This document shows positions 2,493-36,100 of a stretch of 64,000 bases of DNA, piece after piece. Made by a program: the position numbers and the translations under genes. Under the pieces are notes generated by a model. It was not told where the DNA came from, did no database searches, and was given only the letters and a program-made list of their open reading frames with translations. Source of the stretch: a virus (Duplodnaviria > Caudoviricetes); the IMG/VR virus record IMGVR_UViG_3300020577_008743, positions 33,491 to 97,490 of that record; one strand, written 5' to 3'. How positions within the stretch are numbered: position 1 is the stretch's first letter; each line of letters starts with the position of its first letter.

Positions 2493-2863
2493 CCAGTTTC
2501 AGTTTCAAAGTTTAAACCTGGTTAAAGTACCCTAATAAAACCAAAAAAGGGGTGAATGAAACGTTCACATTTTCTCTTCCACACAAGCACACTCAATAGA
2601 AAATCTCCTCGCAAAACCTGCTCGGAGTGGTGGTCTTGTGTGGACAATGGACTGACGGTCCGACAACCAATGCGCCTCCGGCAGCTATGCGTTGTTCGAA
2701 GACGTCGTCGACACTACAACTGATGTCTGCTGGTTGCGTATCGGCAGGCGCGATACCCAGCGGGCCGCCGGACACAAGAAGCGTACTCTTCAGCTGCTCG
2801 AGCACCTCCGCCACGGCACTGGTAGAACGGCTCCTTCAGTCATAAGTCAGTCGAGTTTAACCA

Positions 2864-2940
2864 GGGACTATAGCTCAATTGGTCAGAGCGAAGAACTCAT
2901 AATTCTGGGGTTACAGGTTCGAGCCCTGTTAGTCCCACCA
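2864..2940 (+). tRNA. tRNA with CAT anticodon (Met elongator or Ile2)
   Basis: Full cloverleaf GGGACTA/TAGTCCC, CT-CAT-AA loop, TTCGAGC T-loop, encoded CCA. Confidence 0.93.
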
Positions 2941-2991
2941 ATCCCCCGTAGTAGACCAGCAACAACACATAACCGCACCGAGAAAGACCGT

Positions 2992-3171
2992 ATGACAAAG
3001 TCGCTCTTCGTACTGAAAAACACTAAAACCGGGAAAACATCGGCGGAGACCTTCGCAAACAAGATGGACGCGAAGAATGAACGACGAGCGAGAAACGGAA
3101 TCAGCAAGGACGGCAAGGAAATCCTCACCTGGGTCGTGGCTTACGGCCCGGATCATCACAAGTCGGCTTAG
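2992..3171 (+). CDS. small basic hypothetical protein (59 aa)
   Basis: ATG at 2992 after the tRNA; the upstream part of ORF 2692-3171 overlaps the tRNA. Confidence 0.6.
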   Translation: MTKSLFVLKNTKTGKTSAETFANKMDAKNERRARNGISKDGKEILTWVVAYGPDHHKSA

Positions 3172-3206
3172 AAATAGGTCATCGTAACTGAATGAAAGGC
3201 TTCACC

Positions 3207-4010
3207 ATGGACGCCCGGAAATCCGTAGCACTGCACACCCTCGTCGCTGTTCGCCCGACGTTGGAAACAACCCTGAAAACGATCTCAGCCGAAACGGACA
3301 ACTCCTTCCGAAAACCCGAAAGCCTGACGGAATGGGAAAAGACCTTCACATCGACGGTCACCTGGCCGGAAGGCTCCGAGGCTCTGAAGGTCGCTCTGGA
3401 ATCCCAACGTTCCGGTCACCGTGCGGCGGTCACTTCAACTCAGGATCGAATCGGTTACGAAGCCGCCGAACAGGTCAAGTACTGGGACTTGATGCACAAC
3501 ATCGAGCTGGGCAACCAGGTCGCGGTTGCTGACGTGGTCCTAAAAGACGGCACAGTCTTGATGACCCGCGTCCCCGCAACGCACTTGCGTCGACTGGATA
3601 CGTGGCTCACCACCTTCCGCAACCGCATCGCGAACTGTCCCACGGTCCCGTCAACTATCAACGTGGAACAGGCCTCCCGCAACGGCAGAATGGTCTACGC
3701 CGGACCGGTGAAAACCATCACCGTGTACGAGGAAACCAAAAGCTGGGTGAAGGTCGCCGAGGCCAATGTACACCAGAAGGAAGCCACCGTCCGCGAAGCC
3801 GTCACCAAGACGCCAATCGGCATCGAGAAGGAGATCAACTACTACGGCATGCCCACTTCTTCGGAGAAGGCACAGCTGCTGACCCGTCTTGATGAGCTGA
3901 TCGTGGCAGTCAAGGAGGCGATCACTGAATCAAACACGGTGACCATCGAACCCGTTTCGGTCTCCAAAACTCTCATGGCCTATGCCTTCACCGGCAAGGT
4001 CAATGCCTGA
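3207..4010 (+). CDS. conserved helical hypothetical protein (resembles DUF7873-like family)
   Basis: LHTLVAV N-terminus, N..AVADVV..DG.VL...VPATHL..LD, LL.RLDEL..AVKEA..ESN pattern recalled from a widespread actinobacterial/phage family; GAAAGG RBS. Confidence 0.6.
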   Translation: MDARKSVALHTLVAVRPTLETTLKTISAETDNSFRKPESLTEWEKTFTSTVTWPEGSEALKVALESQRSGHRAAVTSTQDRIGYEAAEQVKYWDLMHNIELGNQVAVADVVLKDGTVLMTRVPATHLRRLDTWLTTFRNRIANCPTVPSTINVEQASRNGRMVYAGPVKTITVYEETKSWVKVAEANVHQKEATVREAVTKTPIGIEKEINYYGMPTSSEKAQLLTRLDELIVAVKEAITESNTVTIEPVSVSKTLMAYAFTGKVNA

Positions 4011-4028
4011 AAAGGAATGAAGTCGTAA

Positions 4029-4407
4029 GTTTGGCTAACGCACATTGCGCAACTCACAGCTGACATTGGGTCTGATAACCCTGAGGGTTATCTTGCAAGG
4101 CCCACAAACGCACAACGCAAAACGCCAAACAAACGCACATAACTTCCTGGAGTAGAAAACCGCCGAAAACATCGCCTTGGAGTTTCAAACGAAATCGTGT
4201 CGGGGGTTCGAGCCCCTCCGCCGCTTCAAATTGCATACTAACGTGTGTAATTCGGAGCGGTGTAACTCAGTGGTAGAGTACGGTTTCCAATACACCCAAA
4301 AAACCTCTAATGAGCGTGGTCAAAAGCACAACCAGGTATACTAATAGCGTATATTGCTACCAATGATACCAGGTCCCTATGGGGTCGGATAATGCCCTGT
4401 GGGGACC
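4029..4407 (+). ncRNA. large structured RNA with circularly permuted tRNA-like domain (4191-4287)
   Basis: T arm GGGGG-TTCGAGC-CCCTC, then acceptor CGCCGCT/AGCGGTG closed by a hairpin, then D arm ACTC-AGTGGTA-GAGT; nested long-range stems; AACGC repeats; terminal hairpin 4372-4407. Confidence 0.75.
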
Positions 4408-4445
4408 GCTTAATGCAGATTTGGATTCAATAAGTCTCCATTAAG

Positions 4446-4454
4446 CGGTATAAG
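4446..4454 (+). promoter_or_regulatory. GGTATAAG promoter motif
   Basis: Recurrent motif. Confidence 0.6.
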
Positions 4455-4461
4455 AATATGA

Positions 4462-4773
4462 AGGTAAAGTAACTGCTGTACTAAAAAAAAGCAAAGTGGG
4501 TGTAACATCCACACGTTTCTTTCAGTCCTAACAACTTGTGTCGTTCGCCTTTGGGCTCACTGGCCCCCTAACGGGTGCCCCACAAGTTGCCAGCTCTGAT
4601 GAGCTGGGCCTCAGGATCCAACGACTGGGTCCCCGGGGACTGGATGTCTTCTTGCACACCCGGTGCATTTTGGATGCTGAGCAAGATGGGCAACGCAATT
4701 GCCCGCCGGCTCAGTGAGATCTGCAGACATCGTCACCTGGTGTTGTTCTGGATCCCGAAGGTCGAGTTTACCT
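4462..4773 (+). ncRNA. candidate structured ncRNA (GUA/GAG family, member 4, ~310 nt)
   Basis: AGGTAAA/TTTACCT closing stem; helices CAACTTGTG/CACAAGTTG (4532-4540/4581-4589), TTCAGTCC/GGACTGGA, CCAGCTC/GAGCTGG, GGGCAA/TTGCCC. Confidence 0.6.
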
Positions 4774-4812
4774 ACATTAGCAACAGAAGTAGAAACAAAA
4801 TGAATTCAAGAA

Positions 4813-4936
4813 TTGAGGCTCTGGGAACAACATTGCGCCGCCTGAATGTCGGAACAAGGTCTTCCCCCCTGTGAGTTCGGCATTCCGCAATTTGGCGTCC
4901 TCCCGCCGAGTTGCATACCAATGCCCAGAGCCTCAA
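4813..4936 (+). ncRNA. candidate structured ncRNA
   Basis: Perfect 13-bp terminal stem TTGAGGCTCTGGG/CCCAGAGCCTCAA with inner GAATGTCGGA/TTCGGCATTC helix. Confidence 0.5.
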
Positions 4937-4941
4937 CCTTA

Positions 4942-5020
4942 CAAACGAAGAGCGTAAGCTCATGAATACGCCATCAACGAAGCTGACCACTTCGTTTCAA
5001 GCCCGGTCGTTCTTCGTTTG
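4942..5020 (+). ncRNA. candidate structured ncRNA or processing/terminator element
   Basis: 13-bp stem CAAACGAAGAGCG/CGTTCTTCGTTTG with inner AACGAAG/CTTCGTT hairpin. Confidence 0.4.
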
Positions 5021-5033
5021 TTTTAGCCACAAT

Positions 5034-5171
5034 TAGGACCGCAGAATTACGATTATCTATAATAGCTGACATGCTGCAGGTTCGAGTCCTGCCTGGCCCA
5101 CCATCTATGGGTCCAGTGGCGAAATGGTATACGCATCAGCCCTAAACCAGTCGTATTCATAATTTGTCCTA
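5034..5171 (+). ncRNA. Y RNA, YrlA-type (Ro-binding stem plus permuted tRNA-Leu-like domain)
   Basis: TAGGAC-CG...TTT-GTCCTA stem, TTATC motif, T arm GCAGG-TTCGAGT-CCTGC before acceptor loop and D arm. Confidence 0.85.
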
Positions 5172-5244
5172 TTCTTCAACGGGGGCGAAGTAGAAACTTA
5201 TGAAGTTCGCAGCTTCTATTTTTCGATACGCTTCCACCAACAAA

Positions 5245-5571
5245 ATGTCTCACACAACCGAGTTGTACTTCGAGTCACATATCACTATTGAGCCCGTGTT
5301 CGATGAAAGACTGGAACAGTTCAAGGGAATATGTGCTTCGGAGGGTTTCAAGGCAGCAGAGCTGCTGATGAAAAAACGTTCGGGTGATACCGCTGAACGT
5401 TCGCAGTACGATACCTTTTGCACTAGTAGAGATCTTATTTATGATAAAATCCAGACTAGAACATTAACCTTGGTCGAAAAGTTGCAGTCTTCCGGGTTTG
5501 ACGTCTGGAGATATAAGATTGAGAATACCTTGTTGGATGTTAGACTTAAATTAGAGTCTAAAATCCAGTAG
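5245..5571 (+). CDS. hypothetical protein
   Basis: ORF between Y RNAs; YFESHITI...RYKIENTLLD pattern; ATG at 5245 avoids the upstream hairpin. Confidence 0.7.
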   Translation: MSHTTELYFESHITIEPVFDERLEQFKGICASEGFKAAELLMKKRSGDTAERSQYDTFCTSRDLIYDKIQTRTLTLVEKLQSSGFDVWRYKIENTLLDVRLKLESKIQ

Positions 5572-5672
5572 GGCAAAAGATTCGATTGTTGTTTATATTA
5601 CTAAATATATTGAGTCTGTAAAAGCTGTTTGCAGTAGAATCAAGAAACATTCGTAGTACTAGAAGCATCCTC

Positions 5673-5734
5673 AGGGCCGCAGGAAGATCGGTTATCCCCT
5701 ACACTGATGACTCCGATTTCCGTATTTTCGCCCT
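5673..5734 (+). ncRNA. minimal Y-like RNA
   Basis: AGGGC-CG...TTC-GCCCT stem, upper stem ATCGG/CCGAT, GGTTATC motif. Confidence 0.8.
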
Positions 5735-5744
5735 TCCCCCAATT

Positions 5745-5805
5745 AGAGCCGATTTGAGCTGGGTTATCCTTCTAAGATACCTCCCCATCTCAGTTCCCTT
5801 GCTCT
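5745..5805 (+). ncRNA. minimal Y-like RNA
   Basis: AGAGC-CG...CTT-GCTCT stem, upper TGAG.TGGG/CCCA.CTCA, GGGTTATC motif. Confidence 0.8.
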
Positions 5806-5834
5806 CCCTCTTGTAGTTGTGGTACAATCAACTT

Positions 5835-5963
5835 TTGAGCCGCTGTTAAATTCCGTTATCTTCCTTAGAAATAGGAAGTTGCGGGTTCGAATCCCGTCGC
5901 CAGCTTATATCTGGCGTAGTTTAATTGGTAAAACTAAAACCGGAACTACACTAATTCGCTCAA
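5835..5963 (+). ncRNA. Y RNA, YrlA-type with permuted tRNA domain
   Basis: TTGAGC-CG...TTC-GCTCAA stem, TTATC, T arm GCGGG-TTCGAAT-CCCGT, acceptor CGCCAG/CTGGCG, D arm GTTT-AATTGGTA-AAAC. Confidence 0.85.
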
Positions 5964-5970
5964 CCCCATT

Positions 5971-6040
5971 TAGGGCCGTCAGGTTATGTCGGTTATCTCA
6001 CTTTTAGCGAAAACCCCGATTAACCATAAATTTTGCCCTA
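5971..6040 (+). ncRNA. minimal Y-like RNA
   Basis: TAGGGC-CG...TTT-GCCCTA stem, GGTTA..TCGG/CCGA.TAACC upper stem, TTATC motif. Confidence 0.8.
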
Positions 6041-6059
6041 CTGATTTAAATTTCAATTT

Positions 6060-6119
6060 GGAGCCGCTTAAAACTGGGTTATCAATTGGTGATTACTCCC
6101 CAGTCTAACTTTTCGCTCC
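6060..6119 (+). ncRNA. minimal Y-like RNA
   Basis: GGAGC-CG...TTC-GCTCC stem, ACTGGG/CCCAGT upper stem, GGGTTATC motif. Confidence 0.8.
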
Positions 6120-6173
6120 TCCCGTTTAAACAAAGATTGCTGGGTTCAAACCTCTTTCTTTTAGCTGTTCAAA

Positions 6174-6377
6174 ATGACCTCTCACAGAAAAATTACCCCG
6201 TCTGAACGAAATATTCTCCACCTCATAAATCGTAGCATAGCGGATTCAGAAGGCTGGTGTAATGTAAGTTCTGCCGTGTTTCCCCTTGTCAAAGACTTTG
6301 ACTCTGAACTAGTTGAAATAAACGGCAACAAAATTCGGTTGACATCGGTAGGTAAGATACTTGCAGATTGGACTTGA
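6174..6377 (+). CDS. hypothetical protein
   Basis: ORF in a tightly packed small-gene run. Confidence 0.6.
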   Translation: MTSHRKITPSERNILHLINRSIADSEGWCNVSSAVFPLVKDFDSELVEINGNKIRLTSVGKILADWT

Positions 6378-6379
6378 TT

Positions 6380-6751
6380 ATGACCGACTCAGAACTAATA
6401 CAAAATGCGGCTAAAGCCATCGGACTCATTGCAACCCCGATATTTACGGAAAATTTCGAGGGCCAGGAGTGGTGGGCGTATGAAGAAGGCAAGCCTACAC
6501 AAACGCTAAGGCCGTGGAATCCTCTTGTGGATGATGGGGATGCCCTACGGTTGCTCGTAGAACTTGGAGACTATGTCCAGGAGGGGAGCTGGCCTTATAT
6601 GTGGGGAGAGGCCCAAGAACAGGCTAAAGAAAACGATGGGCAAATAGACTGGTGTAAGGTTGTTCGTAGAACCATAGTAAAAGCTGCCGCCAATAAATGG
6701 TTAAGGATGGATAGATCAAATGAAAAAGCAACCTCTAAATCCGCAGATTGA
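6380..6751 (+). CDS. conserved phage hypothetical protein
   Basis: ELIQNAAKAIG...WNPLVDDGDALRL...RRTIVKAAA pattern typical of phage small proteins. Confidence 0.75.
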   Translation: MTDSELIQNAAKAIGLIATPIFTENFEGQEWWAYEEGKPTQTLRPWNPLVDDGDALRLLVELGDYVQEGSWPYMWGEAQEQAKENDGQIDWCKVVRRTIVKAAANKWLRMDRSNEKATSKSAD

Positions 6752-7013
6752 AAAACTTCTCGAGTTGTTAGACAAGGCCACGGAAGAACAACGAGGCAGC
6801 GAGAGGGCCCTGTACCTGTTGCTGAAACTCAATGTCGCTGTTCTTCCTGAACTGGATTACAGTTTTCACAAGGCTTTCAGACAGTATGATGTAACTGAGT
6901 CCGGTGAAATGGATATGGCAATCTGGCATCTTTTAGGGGTTTCAAAGACGTTCTGGGAGGTGTTCGGGAAAATTACCGGAACAGATGATGAGGAGCCCGG
7001 CGAAGATGGCTAG
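6720..7013 (+). CDS. hypothetical protein
   Basis: ORF overlap-coupled to neighbours. Confidence 0.65.
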   Translation: MKKQPLNPQIEKLLELLDKATEEQRGSERALYLLLKLNVAVLPELDYSFHKAFRQYDVTESGEMDMAIWHLLGVSKTFWEVFGKITGTDDEEPGEDG

Positions 7014-7224
7014 AATAGAACTTATCTTCCCCGAGGAAGGATACCGTGAAGTAATCGGTGAAAGAGCACTCACTTTGGAAGAGGCTTTTGAAGCAGGAGT
7101 ATTTTGGGCGACCAGGCAGTTTCAAAGTAAATTCGGCATGTACTACCGCAAAGATGAGTGGGGAGAAAGAGACTACGTAGATGTAAAGTCCATTTTCCCC
7201 GATCATGTCAGGGACAAGATATGA
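7006..7224 (+). CDS. hypothetical protein
   Basis: ATG at 7006 with AGGAG upstream. Confidence 0.6.
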   Translation: MARIELIFPEEGYREVIGERALTLEEAFEAGVFWATRQFQSKFGMYYRKDEWGERDYVDVKSIFPDHVRDKI

Positions 7225-7397
7225 CCTGTAGGTTTTGCAACAAACCTTCCGTCAGTTACTACGATATATCTTTGACTGGTATTGGCAATTTCATTGAATA
7301 CTGCAAGAATCACCAGGAAGAGGCTCGTCAAAAGCGCGATGAGCATGATAGATATTGGGAAGAAATCCGAAAGGAAGTTATGAGGGAAAATGGCTAA
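7221..7397 (+). CDS. small Cys-containing hypothetical protein
   Basis: ATGA overlap with previous gene; CxxC...CxxH. Confidence 0.6.
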   Translation: MTCRFCNKPSVSYYDISLTGIGNFIEYCKNHQEEARQKRDEHDRYWEEIRKEVMRENG

Positions 7398-7773
7398 AGT
7401 AACCTGGACAATAGAGGATCACATATGTAGTTCTTGCGGGGGTCGAATAGTAAGATCAGCCAAGGGAACTGGTCCCACCCCTGGAGGAAATCCCGTATAC
7501 AAGTGTTCTTTATGTGGTAAAGTTACAACAGAAATGGGAGGTCATTCCCTGTGTTGGTGCGGATATTCACAGAAATCCAATAACAACTCCCTTCCATATA
7601 AATGCGTTCCGTATTCGATATTAGAGAAATACCCTGACGGCTTAAGTTACTTTAAGTTTTGTGGATGTGATCCTAGGCGGGGAGGGGAAGTGGGAGTAAT
7701 GTTAGAGGAGGATTGGAATGAACTTAGAAAAAAAGACATTGCCGTACAAGTCATACCACCAACAGCTGATTGA
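7390..7773 (+). CDS. Cys-rich putative zinc-binding protein
   Basis: CxxCGG, CxxCG, CWCG motifs. Confidence 0.7.
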   Translation: MAKVTWTIEDHICSSCGGRIVRSAKGTGPTPGGNPVYKCSLCGKVTTEMGGHSLCWCGYSQKSNNNSLPYKCVPYSILEKYPDGLSYFKFCGCDPRRGGEVGVMLEEDWNELRKKDIAVQVIPPTAD

Positions 7774-8119
7774 GGCTAACACCAAAACAGAGGCTCTTCG
7801 AGAACTAATCTCAACATTGGGTGAATTGTTGGTAAAAGAACAGGAAGCCCGTATTTTATACGAAGATGCTGTATGGAAAATGGTCAACGATGGTTGGTTA
7901 GTCCACGGTCCGGAAGGCATGAGTGAAGCTCAACAAGCTGTCTATGATGTTTGTAAAAATCATCCGGAGCTAAAAACTCGAATAAAACAAAAGCAAGAAG
8001 AACAGAGAAATTACGAAGAAGCTACGAACAGAAATGTTCGGCTAGAATCCACTCCGGGAACATACGTACCAAATCCCAAACCCCTACCAGCCTGGCGTCG
8101 TTTGTTTCGCTGGCTGTAA
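7718..8119 (+). CDS. hypothetical coiled-coil protein
   Basis: ORF with GAGGAGG RBS. Confidence 0.65.
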   Translation: MNLEKKTLPYKSYHQQLIEANTKTEALRELISTLGELLVKEQEARILYEDAVWKMVNDGWLVHGPEGMSEAQQAVYDVCKNHPELKTRIKQKQEEQRNYEEATNRNVRLESTPGTYVPNPKPLPAWRRLFRWL

Positions 8120-8125
8120 CCAAAT

Positions 8126-8253
8126 TTGAGCCGTTAGAATTTGATTATCCAATCGCAGGACGTGGTCAAAGGTTCGAATCCTTTCTCCCCCGCCATCAAT
8201 GGGGGAGTAGCTCAGAGGTAGAGCACGTAAACTCGAATTCTGTTTTTGCTCAA
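8126..8253 (+). ncRNA. Y RNA, YrlA-type with permuted tRNA domain and encoded GCCA
   Basis: TTGAGC-CG...TTT-GCTCAA stem, TTATC, T arm AAAGG-TTCGAAT-CCTTT, acceptor CTCCCCC-GCCA.../GGGGGAG, D arm GCTC-AGAGGTA-GAGC. Confidence 0.88.
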
Positions 8254-8260
8254 TTCCAAT

Positions 8261-8391
8261 TTGGACCGAAGTTATTCAGTTATCGCTCCCAATGCGCCAG
8301 ATCGGTTAAGTCCAGCACCCGTTGATTCATGGGTCGTAGTGTATAGAAGCACGGCGCATATTTTCAATTGATTAACGTTCACTTTGTCCAA
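8261..8391 (+). ncRNA. Y RNA with degenerate tRNA-like domain, immediately 5' of Ro60
   Basis: TTGGAC-CG...TTT-GTCCAA stem, AGTTATC, TGCGCC/GGCGCA helix, GG-TTAAGT-CC T-like loop. Confidence 0.8.
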
Positions 8392-8431
8392 CTCTGTTTT
8401 TACCCGTAGTAAACCAACCTGGAGAACCGAA

Positions 8432-10108
8432 ATGTCTGCAAAGAATCTTGTGAATCACCTCGTTCCGGGCCGCTATGCTTCCATTCCTGCGAAGCGTACT
8501 CCCGCCGCCCCGAAGGTGACCAAATCCACCAACCCGAACGCTGGCCTGCCGCCAGTGTCCACTTCTGCGTATCAGAAAACCGCCGCCGGCCAAGTTCAAA
8601 ACTCGTCCGGAGCCTATGTTGGCAAATTGGATGTGTGGGCTCATCTGAATCGGTTTCTCATTCTCGGCACTTCCGGCTCGTCCTACTACGCCTCAGAGCG
8701 CAAGATGACCGTTGACATGGCCAAGGCCGTGGAAGCTGCAGTGAAATACAACGGCATTTCCACCGTCGATCTGATCGTGGAAATCAGCCAAGCCGGTGCC
8801 GCTCCAAAGAATGATCCGGCCTTGCTGGCTCTGGCCATCTGCGTCGCCAAGGGGGATGATTCCACCAAGGCCTACGCAATGAACCAGCTGCCGAAGGTAG
8901 CCAGAATTTCGACTCACCTGTTCGATTTTCTGACCTACGTTCAGGCCATGAGAGGCTGGGGAAGAACCCTGAAAGAAGGTGTTGCCAACTGGTATACTTC
9001 CAAGGATCTGAACCCCTTAGCCATGCAGATGACGAAGTATCGTCAAAGAAATGGCTGGACTCACCGCGACGTTCTGAGACTGGCTCACCCGAAGCCCACC
9101 TCCGAGTCCATGAACAATCTGTTCAAGTGGGCCATCAAAGGTCCAGAAGCACTGGAAAGAGGTGCGGAAATCCCTGAACAAGTCATCGGCTTCGAGAAGG
9201 CAAAGACCGCAGGTTCCGGTACTCTGGTCAAACTGATTCAGGATTACCGCCTGACCTGGGAGATGATTCCGACTGAGATGCTGAATGATGCCAACGTGTT
9301 TCACGCTCTAGTCATGAGCATGAATCTCGAGGCCATGATTCGCAATCTGCCGCGCATCACCAATCTCAACTTGTTGCTTACTCGGGAAGTCAGGGACCGT
9401 ATTCTGAGTCTTCTGAGAAACGCAGAGGAGATCAAGGCCAAGCGGTACCATCCCCTCAAGGCTCTGGTGGCTAGAAAGACCTACGCCAGTGGCCGAGGTC
9501 TGAAGGGTAGCATGACCTGGGTACCCAACGCCGAGGTTGCCAGGGCCCTGGAAGACACGTTCTATCTGGGGTTCGATGCAGTGGAACCCACAGGCAAAAG
9601 ACTTCTGTTGGGTATCGACGTCTCCGGCTCCATGACCATGGGCCAAGTAGGGGGCATGCCCCTTGCTCCGTACGAAGCTGTTGCCGCAATGGCAATGGTT
9701 ACGGCACGTTGCGAACCTCTGGCAGAAATCCTCGGCTTTTCGTACAACCTGCAAGACCTTGGTATCAAGAACACCGATACTCTGGCCCAGGTTCTGAAGA
9801 AAGTGCAATTGGCTCGATTTGGAAGTACGAATCCCGGAGCACTAATTCAGTACGCAGCCAAGAAAGGCAATGTGGAAGGCCTGGTCGTCTACACCGACAA
9901 CGAAGTGAACCAAGGTTCCAGCGTTGCGGCAGAGATGAAGAAATATCGCACCAAGGCTTCTGTGGCCAGAGCAACGATGACTGTAGTCGGAATGACGGTC
10001 AACAATTTCACCCTAGCCGACCCCAAAGATCCAGACATGCTCGACATTGTTGGATTCGATACCGCTGCTCCAGCAGTGATGTCCGAGTTCATCAAGGGCA
10101 CTTTCTGA
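8432..10108 (+). CDS. rsr: Ro60/Rsr RNA-binding protein (TROVE plus vWA)
   Basis: LNRFLILGT..SSYY, KYRQRNGWTHRDVLRLAHPK TROVE signature, DVSGSM MIDAS, YTDNE, DIVGFD; ATG 8432 with GGAG RBS. Confidence 0.96.
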   Translation: MSAKNLVNHLVPGRYASIPAKRTPAAPKVTKSTNPNAGLPPVSTSAYQKTAAGQVQNSSGAYVGKLDVWAHLNRFLILGTSGSSYYASERKMTVDMAKAVEAAVKYNGISTVDLIVEISQAGAAPKNDPALLALAICVAKGDDSTKAYAMNQLPKVARISTHLFDFLTYVQAMRGWGRTLKEGVANWYTSKDLNPLAMQMTKYRQRNGWTHRDVLRLAHPKPTSESMNNLFKWAIKGPEALERGAEIPEQVIGFEKAKTAGSGTLVKLIQDYRLTWEMIPTEMLNDANVFHALVMSMNLEAMIRNLPRITNLNLLLTREVRDRILSLLRNAEEIKAKRYHPLKALVARKTYASGRGLKGSMTWVPNAEVARALEDTFYLGFDAVEPTGKRLLLGIDVSGSMTMGQVGGMPLAPYEAVAAMAMVTARCEPLAEILGFSYNLQDLGIKNTDTLAQVLKKVQLARFGSTNPGALIQYAAKKGNVEGLVVYTDNEVNQGSSVAAEMKKYRTKASVARATMTVVGMTVNNFTLADPKDPDMLDIVGFDTAAPAVMSEFIKGTF

Positions 10109-33103: not shown

Positions 33104-36100
33104 GAAAATTCTTTGGATATGTTAAAAACAACTCCGTTTCTATTTATGGAAACAGGAGTGGGGTTGGGGATGTCAGCGTAGTATACATCTATTTTAGATC
33201 CCGAGTCAATAGATGCATCGATAGGTTGAGCGTCGATAGCCAGAGAGTTCTGTATTGAGTTAGTACCACCACCTCGTATGTTGTAATAAGGGCTATACAT
33301 TCCATCCCCTCTGCGCAAAGGAATGTTTCTCATTCCAAGGGTAAGCCCGTCCGTGACTTTAACGCCTCTAACATTGGGGGCGGAGGCAGTCAGGTTTGAA
33401 GTCACCCAAAAAACTCCGATGGTATTTTCGTAAATTCGAATACACCATATAAAGTCTCCTTCGAGTACTTCTGAGATGGGAGGGGTGTACGTTTCATACC
33501 CAATCGGGCGAGGTGTGAAATTGCCCAGGTAAGGCATACCAACCCGGTTGAAAATGGTTGAAAAGTTACTAATCAAGTAGGGATAGTAGCTCGTCACTCT
33601 TGAGGTGTCTATGGCTTGAGCGTTTATAAGTTCTCCGACTGTTCTTTGAGTTTCGAACATAGTCCATTCCCATGTAGAAAGGGGAGGGATTTGCTGACCG
33701 ACCGTACCCATACGAGCTGATAGCTCAGCCTGGGTAGTAACATGCAACAACACCTTTCTCATCAACCCGGAGCCCTTTGTGAAGGTCTGTACCCCTAGAT
33801 TAGTGGAAGTAGTGCCTCGGTTGAACGCCATCATTGAACGAGGCTTACCAAAGGTTTCAGAATCCCTATACATCACAGAGGATATCCACTCATTGGTCTG
33901 CAGGGCCTTACCGTTCTGGTATTGATTGTCCGAACCGATATACCCAGTTACAATGCCATTTTCATAGCTTCTAACAGCTCCATTTACTGCAAGGTCATTG
34001 CCCAATTGACCATAAATTTTCCAGGACGTGTTGCAACGAATGAATTGAGGGCAGCCTCGAGCTAGGTTGTCGTATTGTCCATCCCCACCAAACCAGCCGG
34101 GGACAACTCCGCCCGGGGGTGCGTACGTAAACGGAGTGGCTCCAGTATTGTAAGTTACAGTAGTTTTGTCATAAAGAGTTATAGCAGGGTAATATACTCC
34201 CGGCCCCACTGTTCCCATTATTCCTGTGTTGACTCCGTTTTTGTATATAGTGAAATTACCTGAAGAGGCTTCGAATAAAAGACCGATTCTATCCCCCGGT
34301 CTTGATGCTCGAATATCCGGAGAAGGGAAGTTCATCCAAACGTTGTTGTTCAACAGAAATGATCCTTCATACCCCCCGAATCCATACAGAGGACCCCCTG
34401 GGATAGACGAAGAGTTTACGCATAAGTACATAAACGAGTTGGGGTGTAGCCCCAAGGCTTCGGACATTGGGTAATCAGCTTGACATACACCAATCCCAAA
34501 TCCGTAGTAGCCAGATAAGTCCGCAGTAGTGAATGAATATTCGGTCCAATAAACCCCGGTGGCTTTTCCGATATTTGAGTTTGCAACCACCCCTCCATAA
34601 CTTCCTCTAGCCGAAACCAGGTAAGAAATGGTTCCGGTGATAGTATTTTCGGAAACAGTTATCACGGGATATCTGTCTGAAGAAAATTCTGCGTATTGAC
34701 GACCATAGCTAAAAGAGTAAACCCCTTGGTTTACCGTAGGATCGGTAGGTGGATAAGAGAATTCTCTCTCTCCGAAATTAACAGTTGTTTTAATTCTGTC
34801 ATCGAAGGAAGAAATCATGGGGTAATACGTACCCACGGGTAGAGTATGGGCTACTCCACAAGAAACTCCGTTGACATAAAAGCTTAGTTGACGTGTATCA
34901 GCGTTGAACAAAACTCCGATCACGTCAGTGGGCTTGGGGTTTATTCCATAGCCAGAGCCCACCATGCTTCCATTTTTGAACAACAAACTAAATGCTCCAA
35001 CTCCCCCCATGGTGGTGTAAGCCAAAGAGTCCACCTTGGAGTATCCGTAGTTGGGAGTATAGAAATACCAGGAGGCCCCGTTAAGTCCTACTTGTTCTCC
35101 GAAACTTCCAGTAGTGAACGTGTCAGGTCCTCCAACACCAATCTGCATGGTGAATACCGGAATGTTGTCCCATTTGTTAAAGTCTGCTGTGTACCTGTTT
35201 TCGTTGGTTATTTCCCAATACCAGGTTCCAGAAGCCAAGGGAATATCTGATTTGACTGATTCCCAGCCGACACCCCAGGATATGGTGTTTCCCTGTAGTT
35301 GAAGACTGGTGCCTGCCGTGTAGAGAGTAGCGTACCGAACGTTTTTCCGAATCATCTTGTTGATCGGAAAGCTCAGATTATCACACTTGTTTTGAATCCA
35401 GCCTTGAGTAAGGGAAGAATCATCCAGAGTAATGGTGTCATCCGCTGTGGGGACGGTCCAGATGTACAGCGGGGTTGTATAACTAGGTTTGGCGTCCCTG
35501 ATAATGTCAAATAACTGTTCGAACGTTTGCAGATTTTTGAAGTCAATGGTTTTTACATTGACCAAAAACGTATGTTTTTTCAAATAGTTACGCATCAAAT
35601 AATCAGCGTAGCTACCAGCCTTAGCGTATCTATCAGGCTCGCCCGGGGGAATGTAAGGCATTACTGACGGAGGGATTTGCAGGTTTATCCACCACTCTCC
35701 GTCATTGATATAGTCTTTTACTTCAATCCATTCGGCCAGCTCATCGGTAGGGGCCAGAACATCTCCTGTAGAAACCGTGGGGGTCAATCCGTAGGGAATA
35801 AGATAGGAGTTAGAATCGGTTATTACGACGTACTGGTCGGTGTTGAGATACTTACGAGTTTCCAGAACGGTCTCAACATCACGGGCCAAAGGAATACCCA
35901 AGGCTATGTTCAAGCCCTTCTTCATATTGGCTAAGTCCGGGCCGTTTATGAATAGGTAATGGAGTCCATAAATGAAGTTCTTGTATGATTCAGTACTATG
36001 CTCTGGCTCCCCTGGAACAAGGATTTTACCAAAGTATTTGTATATGAACTTCTCGTCTATGTTCGCATCAACAAACCAAAGGGCGTATTGTTTGTCCCCA

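Follow-up and report, generated by a model that had tools for sequence, protein, structure and literature searches.

What is the structured RNA that lies directly downstream of a DUF7873 protein gene in the transfer RNA (tRNA) region of a tailed phage, and does it belong with that gene or with the Ro60 system encoded by the same phage? The stretch in which this question arises (hereafter the window) comprises 64,000 nucleotides (nt) of a Caudoviricetes virus, positions 33,491 to 97,490 of the IMG/VR record IMGVR_UViG_3300020577_008743, a 97.5-kb phage record that is about 63% complete and whose DNA is present in sludge, wastewater and river metagenomes. Here, the open reading frame (ORF) at 3207-4010 is followed by a conserved non-coding RNA of about 375 nt (approximately 4034-4410), which consists of a 5′ domain, a permuted tRNA-like head and a 3′ hairpin; all window features described below lie on the + strand. 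Comparison with relatives established both the structure of the RNA and its conserved pairing with the gene, and the locus is probably one copy of a widespread, Ro60-independent gene pair in which DUF7873 is accompanied by a stable RNA just downstream. No paper that mentions DUF7873 or describes a DUF7873-RNA pair was found, and a literature search on permuted tRNAs in phages and on Ro60-independent Y RNAs returned nothing relevant. New here are an internal control against Ro60-type feet, a whole-genome specificity test in Ro60-less cultured phages and a joint recovered from an RNA library.

Architecture and conservation of the DUF7873-linked RNA

The 410 nt on the 3′ side of the DUF7873 stop codon fold better than shuffled sequences (z = -4.4), and no terminator hairpin was found between the stop codon and the RNA in the window. 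The elements that a first-pass annotation had placed in this region (two closing words, five AACGC motifs, a perfect hairpin, a permuted tRNA and a GC hairpin) were all recovered at their positions. The 5′ domain (4029..4136), delimited by the sequence, the minimum-free-energy fold and repeat statistics, contains a closing stem, two hairpins, one of which (4066-4104) encloses the perfect hairpin at 4074-4092, and an A/C-rich repeat track at 4104-4136. Its closing words, GTTTGGC at 4029-4035 and GCCAAAC at 4124-4130, had been taken for a 7-base-pair (bp) stem; both words are present, but only 2 bp of the stem are left if the candidate RNA 5′ end at 4034, described below, is the true one. The AACGC motif occurs at 4037, 4107, 4114, 4121 and 4132, that is, in five copies within 100 nt, against a window-wide density of about one per 1500 nt per strand and a total count at chance level. 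This word is confined to the lineage of the window, where it represents a broader CAAAC-type repeat; CAAAC shows enrichment in 8 of the 13 homologous RNAs (16 observed versus 3.9 expected), so that the short repeats are enriched yet not universal. The sequence of the 5′ domain is not conserved in the related contigs L003 or L002, where the two-hairpin layout is similar.

The head is carried by an irregular stalk (4146..4336 in the minimum-free-energy fold), whose predicted outer stems, CCTGG/CCAGG at 4146-4150/4332-4336 and TTGGAG/CTCTAA at 4177-4182/4306-4311, can be aligned in three relatives. The head itself (4191..4287) is a permuted, anticodon-less tRNA-like domain, recognized from its sequence and fold, a partial match to the Rfam YrlA family and covariation, in which the 5′ strand of an anticodon-like stem is followed by the T arm, a closed and extended acceptor hairpin, the D arm and the 3′ strand of the anticodon-like stem. 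The T arm spans 4202-4218 with the loop TTCGAGC; the acceptor-like stem has 7 bp, is extended and closed by a 30-nt hairpin (4219-4262) and lacks CCA; U8 and A9 precede the D arm (4265-4279, loop AGTGGTA); and the 8-bp anticodon-like stem (4191-4198/4280-4287) continues into the stalk without a loop. The RNA closes with a GC hairpin of 14 bp and an 8-nt loop (4372..4407), read by eye as conserved in relatives. It can be aligned in L003, L002 and L006, where several pairs show compensatory changes and the 8-nt loop is kept, and a comparable hairpin, its loop resembling theirs, was noted in L007, again by eye. In these near relatives (L003, L002, L006 and partly L007), the 3′ flank and a short conserved word in front of the hairpin can be aligned as well.

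A comparable downstream element had been suggested for relatives in actinobacteria and phages, and this was borne out in the 14 DUF7873 contexts examined, which comprise 10 metagenome contigs (the window, L002, L003, L005, L006, L007, L027/L028, L029, L030 and L031) and four cultured phages found by tblastn (Klebsiella FBKp24, Rhizobium RHph_TM30, Vibrio K479 and Ralstonia phiRSL1). A permuted tRNA-like head lies downstream of DUF7873 on the same strand in all 14, within 100-450 nt of the gene in 13 of them, and the head-bearing relatives include some whose proteins are only 25-30% identical. Across 15 aligned heads, 99.6% of the cells pair, compensatory changes are found at 15 of 15 pairs, and none of 500 shuffles was as good; slid controls of the same alignment were about 46% paired. 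The invariant positions of the alignment correspond to the nucleotides of the tRNA elbow. All 13 main heads have an anticodon-like stem, 4-8 bp long and with a different sequence each time. A head model built for this family (R1) gives 79 bits on the window copy, which is part of its training set; Rfam missed most of the relatives' heads because of their long acceptor inserts. The RNAs of phiRSL1, FBKp24, L030 and L031 are two-headed, and that of the window is one-headed. In FBKp24 (L021, NC_061421.1), an annotated tRNA-Sup-TTA (5009-5088) shares positions with the T arm of the RNA's second permuted head and is probably a mis-call. A further permuted head (R1, 42.7 bits) was observed at G000:C1:28208-28293, 5.3 kb before the window start and away from both DUF7873 and Ro60.

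Both termini of the RNA could be approached, one through a metatranscriptome and one through the sequence. In run X18, one contig joins position 5171, one extra A and 4034-4177, both pieces being identical to the window, and thereby marks 4034, 24 nt past the DUF7873 stop codon, as a candidate 5′ end (a transcription start or a processing site). Position 5171 is one nt beyond the predicted closing stem of the first of the Ro60-side units described in the next section, and the joint leads 1138 nt backward, linking the predicted 3′ end of this unit with the candidate start of the DUF7873-linked RNA. We read it as two RNA ends that were ligated, in the cell or during library making, each of which would hint at one of the two joined termini; alternatively, the contig could stem from a circular RNA or from a rearrangement of the DNA. 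None of the protein-coding parts of 2800-8500 is covered in X18, and contigs at depth 2 say nothing on expression levels; run X20 covers only tRNA-like words and short pieces. On the other side, the 3′ hairpin is followed by a promoter-like element (4426..4454), in which a 17-nt spacer separates a -35-like hexamer at 4426 from an extended -10 at 4449 and which is kept in L003 and L002 and overlaps an inverted repeat (4406-4415/4439-4448) conserved in the same two contigs. Judged from its sequence, this element may drive the next small RNA, and the DUF7873-linked RNA therefore most likely ends near 4410. The extended -10 word is found again at about 1833 and about 2062 in the small-RNA region, which suggests a set of small RNAs driven by promoters with a common -10 word.

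Independence of the gene-RNA pair from Ro60

The head type in itself is already known. In YrlA RNAs, a T arm, an acceptor-like stem-loop and a D arm follow one another in this order, a 5′ GNCGAAN0-1G motif is the proposed Rsr contact, and the gene for the RNA shares its strand with a Ro60 orthologue no more than 4 kb away (Chen et al. 2014, PMC4201824). The same domain order is found in the window head by sequence, fold and covariation over the 15 heads. Measured from its start, the head is 4.18 kb from the rsr ORF, which follows on the same strand. The motif is incomplete in the window RNA, where GCCGAA (4162-4167) is followed by AAC and the closing G is missing, at a position not conserved in L003. 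YrlA (RF02553, gathering score 69 bits) was the sole Rfam family to respond, with a partial match of 24.5 bits, below the gathering score, at 4198-4279 (model positions 27-81). Like YrlA, the window head has a permuted topology in which the anticodon arm is replaced by a connecting helix, keeps the elbow nucleotides U8, A14, G18, G19, U54, U55, C56 and A58, and is encoded beside a protein gene on the same strand. Unlike YrlA, the RNA accompanies DUF7873, occurs in genomes without Ro60 and, at three times the length, includes an additional 5′ domain and 3′ hairpin; it thus differs from known YrlA-type tRNA mimics in its partner gene, in its length and in lacking the Ro foot of its own phage. 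Some similarity also exists to permuted (two-piece) transfer-messenger RNA (tmRNA) genes, in which, as in the head, the T arm and the acceptor 3′ strand precede the acceptor 5′ strand. However, the window head lacks CCA, a G3:U70 pair, a tag reading frame and pseudoknots, and its acceptor is closed by a hairpin; the Rfam tmRNA models gave only a weak 19 bits over it.

The window phage encodes a Ro60/Rsr orthologue (8384..10108; Pfam TROVE and vWA_Ro60, PHROG 850), and upstream of it are about eight Y-RNA-like units at approximately 5030-8320 (5030-6125 and 8120-8320), of which three have YrlA-like heads and four are minimal, with a length of 60-75 nt. In all of them, a lower stem of 5 bp leads into CCG, after which come an upper stem and the word UUAUC, and the same foot grammar is present beside Ro60 in L003, L006 and L002; the spacing from CCG to UUAUC is reminiscent of that in the human Y1 and Y4 RNAs. 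Of the Ro60-side units (5034-6120 and 8126-8320), three share the head type of the DUF7873-linked RNA (R1, 43-57 bits), and the units are encoded on the strand of that RNA, within one early small-RNA region. Unlike the DUF7873-linked RNA, the Ro60-side units measure 60-140 nt, are clustered against rsr and carry the CCG/UUAUC foot. Because Ro60 with its Y units and the DUF7873-linked RNA reside in one genome, the window serves as an internal control in which the two RNA sets are directly comparable. A model of the minimal units' foot (R2) scores 50-64 bits on those units, but over 4011-4420 it reaches no more than chance level (5.0 bits, E 4.7); no Ro-type foot was therefore detected in the DUF7873-linked RNA, in agreement with the initial reading that a Y-type foot is missing.

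The first-pass annotation had also proposed a check of co-occurrence with TROVE. Gene and RNA are INDEPENDENCE from Ro60 in three whole records that carry the pair, FBKp24 (307 kb), phiRSL1 (231 kb) and K479 (79 kb), none of which gave a TROVE match. When R1 was run over these entire Ro60-less records, the only strong matches (at least 41 bits) were those beside DUF7873, and the other matches, of at most 31 bits, fell in tandem tRNA genes. In RHph_TM30, a TROVE match lies 6.4 kb from the pair; the Ro60-side array of this phage uses a different foot word in about eight repeats, and that word is absent from the DUF7873-linked RNA of the same phage. These comparisons show that the gene-RNA pairing is independent of TROVE/Ro60.

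The DUF7873 protein and a possible RNA-protein particle

The protein gene (3207..4010) encodes 267 amino acids; the open frame starts at 3192, and the ATG at 3207 was taken for its better ribosome-binding site and its agreement with the start of the database protein. The earlier assignment to DUF7873 was confirmed by Pfam PF25283 (88.7 bits, E 6.4e-25, profile positions 4-242 of 244, curated cut-off 27 bits), and a genome search with the same profile gave 88.3 bits. An exhaustive phmmer search found relatives in 743 clusters; a word-index protein search recovered only the window's own DUF7873 protein. The protein had been described as conserved-looking and helical. It does belong to a conserved family, but it is not purely helical, since the AF2 model, which is confident (pLDDT, the predicted local distance difference test, 91.5), is mixed alpha/beta with six helices and long beta hairpins. 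The structure search that had been called for was carried out with Foldseek against the PDB and was uninformative (best E 0.025), as was a comparison with BFVD (best E 0.009), and a wide VIA-align search returned generic helical bundles (best Z 7.9). The predicted structure thus matches no known fold.

The original proposal, in which an oligomer would bind the short repeats and display a tRNA mimic, is supported in part, and an oligomeric state is plausible. The homodimer model scores 0.67, compared with 0.00 for the best of three controls. Among proteins of solved structure, the mark of the homodimer model was reached by 20 of 30 one-chain pairs and 1 of 23 single chains. The three homodimer runs agree in at least 97% of contacts, with a partner pLDDT of 86, and the family-invariant residues N108, A111, D114, P128 and L132 are located in the predicted interface. 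DUF7873 therefore probably forms a homodimer, as far as modelling can indicate, and a dimer fits the two-headed RNAs of other phages.

As the leading explanation, we tentatively propose a particle of a DUF7873 dimer and the RNA that presents a tRNA elbow; direct binding and a decoy or recruiting role are conceivable, although we would stop short of calling them probable. The dimer would bind the non-tRNA part of the RNA, be it the stalk, the repeat track or the 3′ hairpin, and the particle would offer the elbow to factors that recognize the tRNA shape. Candidates for such factors would be RNase P, modification or CCA-adding enzymes, RNA-repair enzymes and host tRNA-targeting defence nucleases, and the outcome would be a phage tRNA supply that is kept working during infection. 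In a more far-reaching version, which we consider unlikely, DUF7873 and its RNA would constitute a Ro60-independent ribonucleoprotein and a second, unrelated protein solution for a tRNA mimic, active here beside a separate Ro60 system with its own Y RNAs. Phages would retain this ribonucleoprotein in their tRNA clusters either to draw away host defence nucleases or sensors directed at tRNAs, or to bring enzymes of tRNA processing or repair to RNAs that have been damaged. Several observations weigh against a particle of this kind. DUF7873 proteins are near neutral (median isoelectric point 7.0 among 40 members), so that charge is no argument for RNA binding, and no recognizable RNA-binding fold was found in DUF7873. 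In L030, the head is 2.5 kb away, with three ORFs between gene and RNA. The phage of the window encodes Ro60 4.2 kb downstream on the same strand, and the RNA could serve Ro60 too. The conserved adjacency, situated in phage tRNA clusters, could be due to joint transcription and not to a complex, and the RNA evidence consists of the single X18 contig at a depth of 2.4.

In an alternative account, the RNA acts alone or in cis without DUF7873, either as an RNase P- or RNase Z-type signal that processes and stabilizes transcripts of the tRNA region or as a free decoy that is merely co-transcribed. The pair is always located in phage tRNA gene clusters, the window has no terminator hairpin between stop codon and RNA, an RNA end falls at 4034, and the YrlA RNA of M. 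smegmatis is cut by RNase P and receives CCA (PMC4201824). A conserved architecture of 375 nt that includes a 5′ domain and a 3′ hairpin would, however, be unnecessary for a processing signal, and the partner gene is retained across 25-30% identity. Moreover, a hairpin or an annotated promoter separates the RNA from the gene in the near relatives and in FBKp24, and this points to a transcript of its own. Taken together, we consider this account somewhat unlikely.

The proximity of rsr raises a different explanation, namely that the RNA is one more YrlA-type Y RNA of the phage's Ro60 system and that its place beside DUF7873 is an inherited gene order without function. The RNA lies on the rsr strand, upstream of rsr, in a phage with an expanded Y-RNA set; YrlA is its best-matching Rfam family; the hairpin at 4066-4104 appears weakly Y-foot-like by eye, including a UUAUC word; and long acceptor stems are known in some YrlA RNAs of the published set, which includes phage copies (PMC4201824). 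Nevertheless, three phage records hold the pair without a TROVE gene, the foot common to the Ro60-side units is missing, the GNCGAAN0-1G motif is incomplete and the YrlA score is far under the gathering score, all of which make a Y RNA of the Ro60 system decidedly unlikely. The order of the head, with the 3′ half before the 5′ half, also resembles circularly permuted or split tRNA genes that mature into a working tRNA, and ARAGORN or annotators sometimes call a tRNA at such heads, as with the tRNA-Sup-TTA on the second head of FBKp24. This origin is highly improbable for the window copy, which has no anticodon loop, an anticodon-like stem that continues into the stalk, and neither CCA nor a free acceptor end, and at which ARAGORN called no tRNA.

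If the proposed DUF7873-RNA particle exists, it would add a second widespread protein family that travels with a tRNA mimic and would make tRNA mimicry a reusable module for RNA-protein machines; to our knowledge, Y RNAs with tRNA-like domains are known only as Ro60 partners. The tRNA-cluster regions of phages are now linked to escape from tRNA-cleaving anti-phage defences, and the pair, which extends to cultured Klebsiella, Ralstonia, Rhizobium and Vibrio phages, would then give an initial clue to what the proteins of a large DUF family in these clusters do.

Genomic surroundings of the pair

The DUF7873 gene and its RNA are placed in the tRNA/small-RNA region of the phage. A tRNA-Met(CAT) at 2864..2940 was identified by ARAGORN and Rfam (tRNA, 67.8 bits) and was the sole match in a blastn search against phages. 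Searches of viral contigs for loci related to DUF7873 or Ro60 gave no matches; the alignment was too divergent for the method. The DNA pattern of the conserved promoter-like element had chance-level matches only in viral contigs and none in metagenome contigs. RtcB is encoded in two of five phage records with the pair and never adjoins it, and a link to RNA ligation is therefore not indicated.

Between the tRNA gene and DUF7873, directly upstream of the latter, is a small conserved ORF of 59 amino acids (2992..3171), which shares 43-60% identity with the ORFs at the same position in L002, L003 and L006 and matches no Pfam or PHROG family. In these three contigs it is better conserved than DUF7873 itself; outside such near relatives it was not seen, and it is absent from the cultured phages examined. 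On the 3′ side of the pair, the promoter-like element precedes a short RNA that bears a terminator-like hairpin at 4496-4512 (region 4406-4520), and an X18 contig over 4485-4733 ends in a short A-rich tail. The approximately 500 nt from 4520 to 5030, between this small RNA and the first Y-like unit, are GC-rich and ORF-poor and can be aligned only weakly with L003. The small-RNA region of the relatives also contains a permuted tmRNA (68.9 bits, L006) and group I introns (coordinates of tmRNA and introns together: L006 14640-14891; L003 7480-7671; L006 4130-4313 and 11882-12578).
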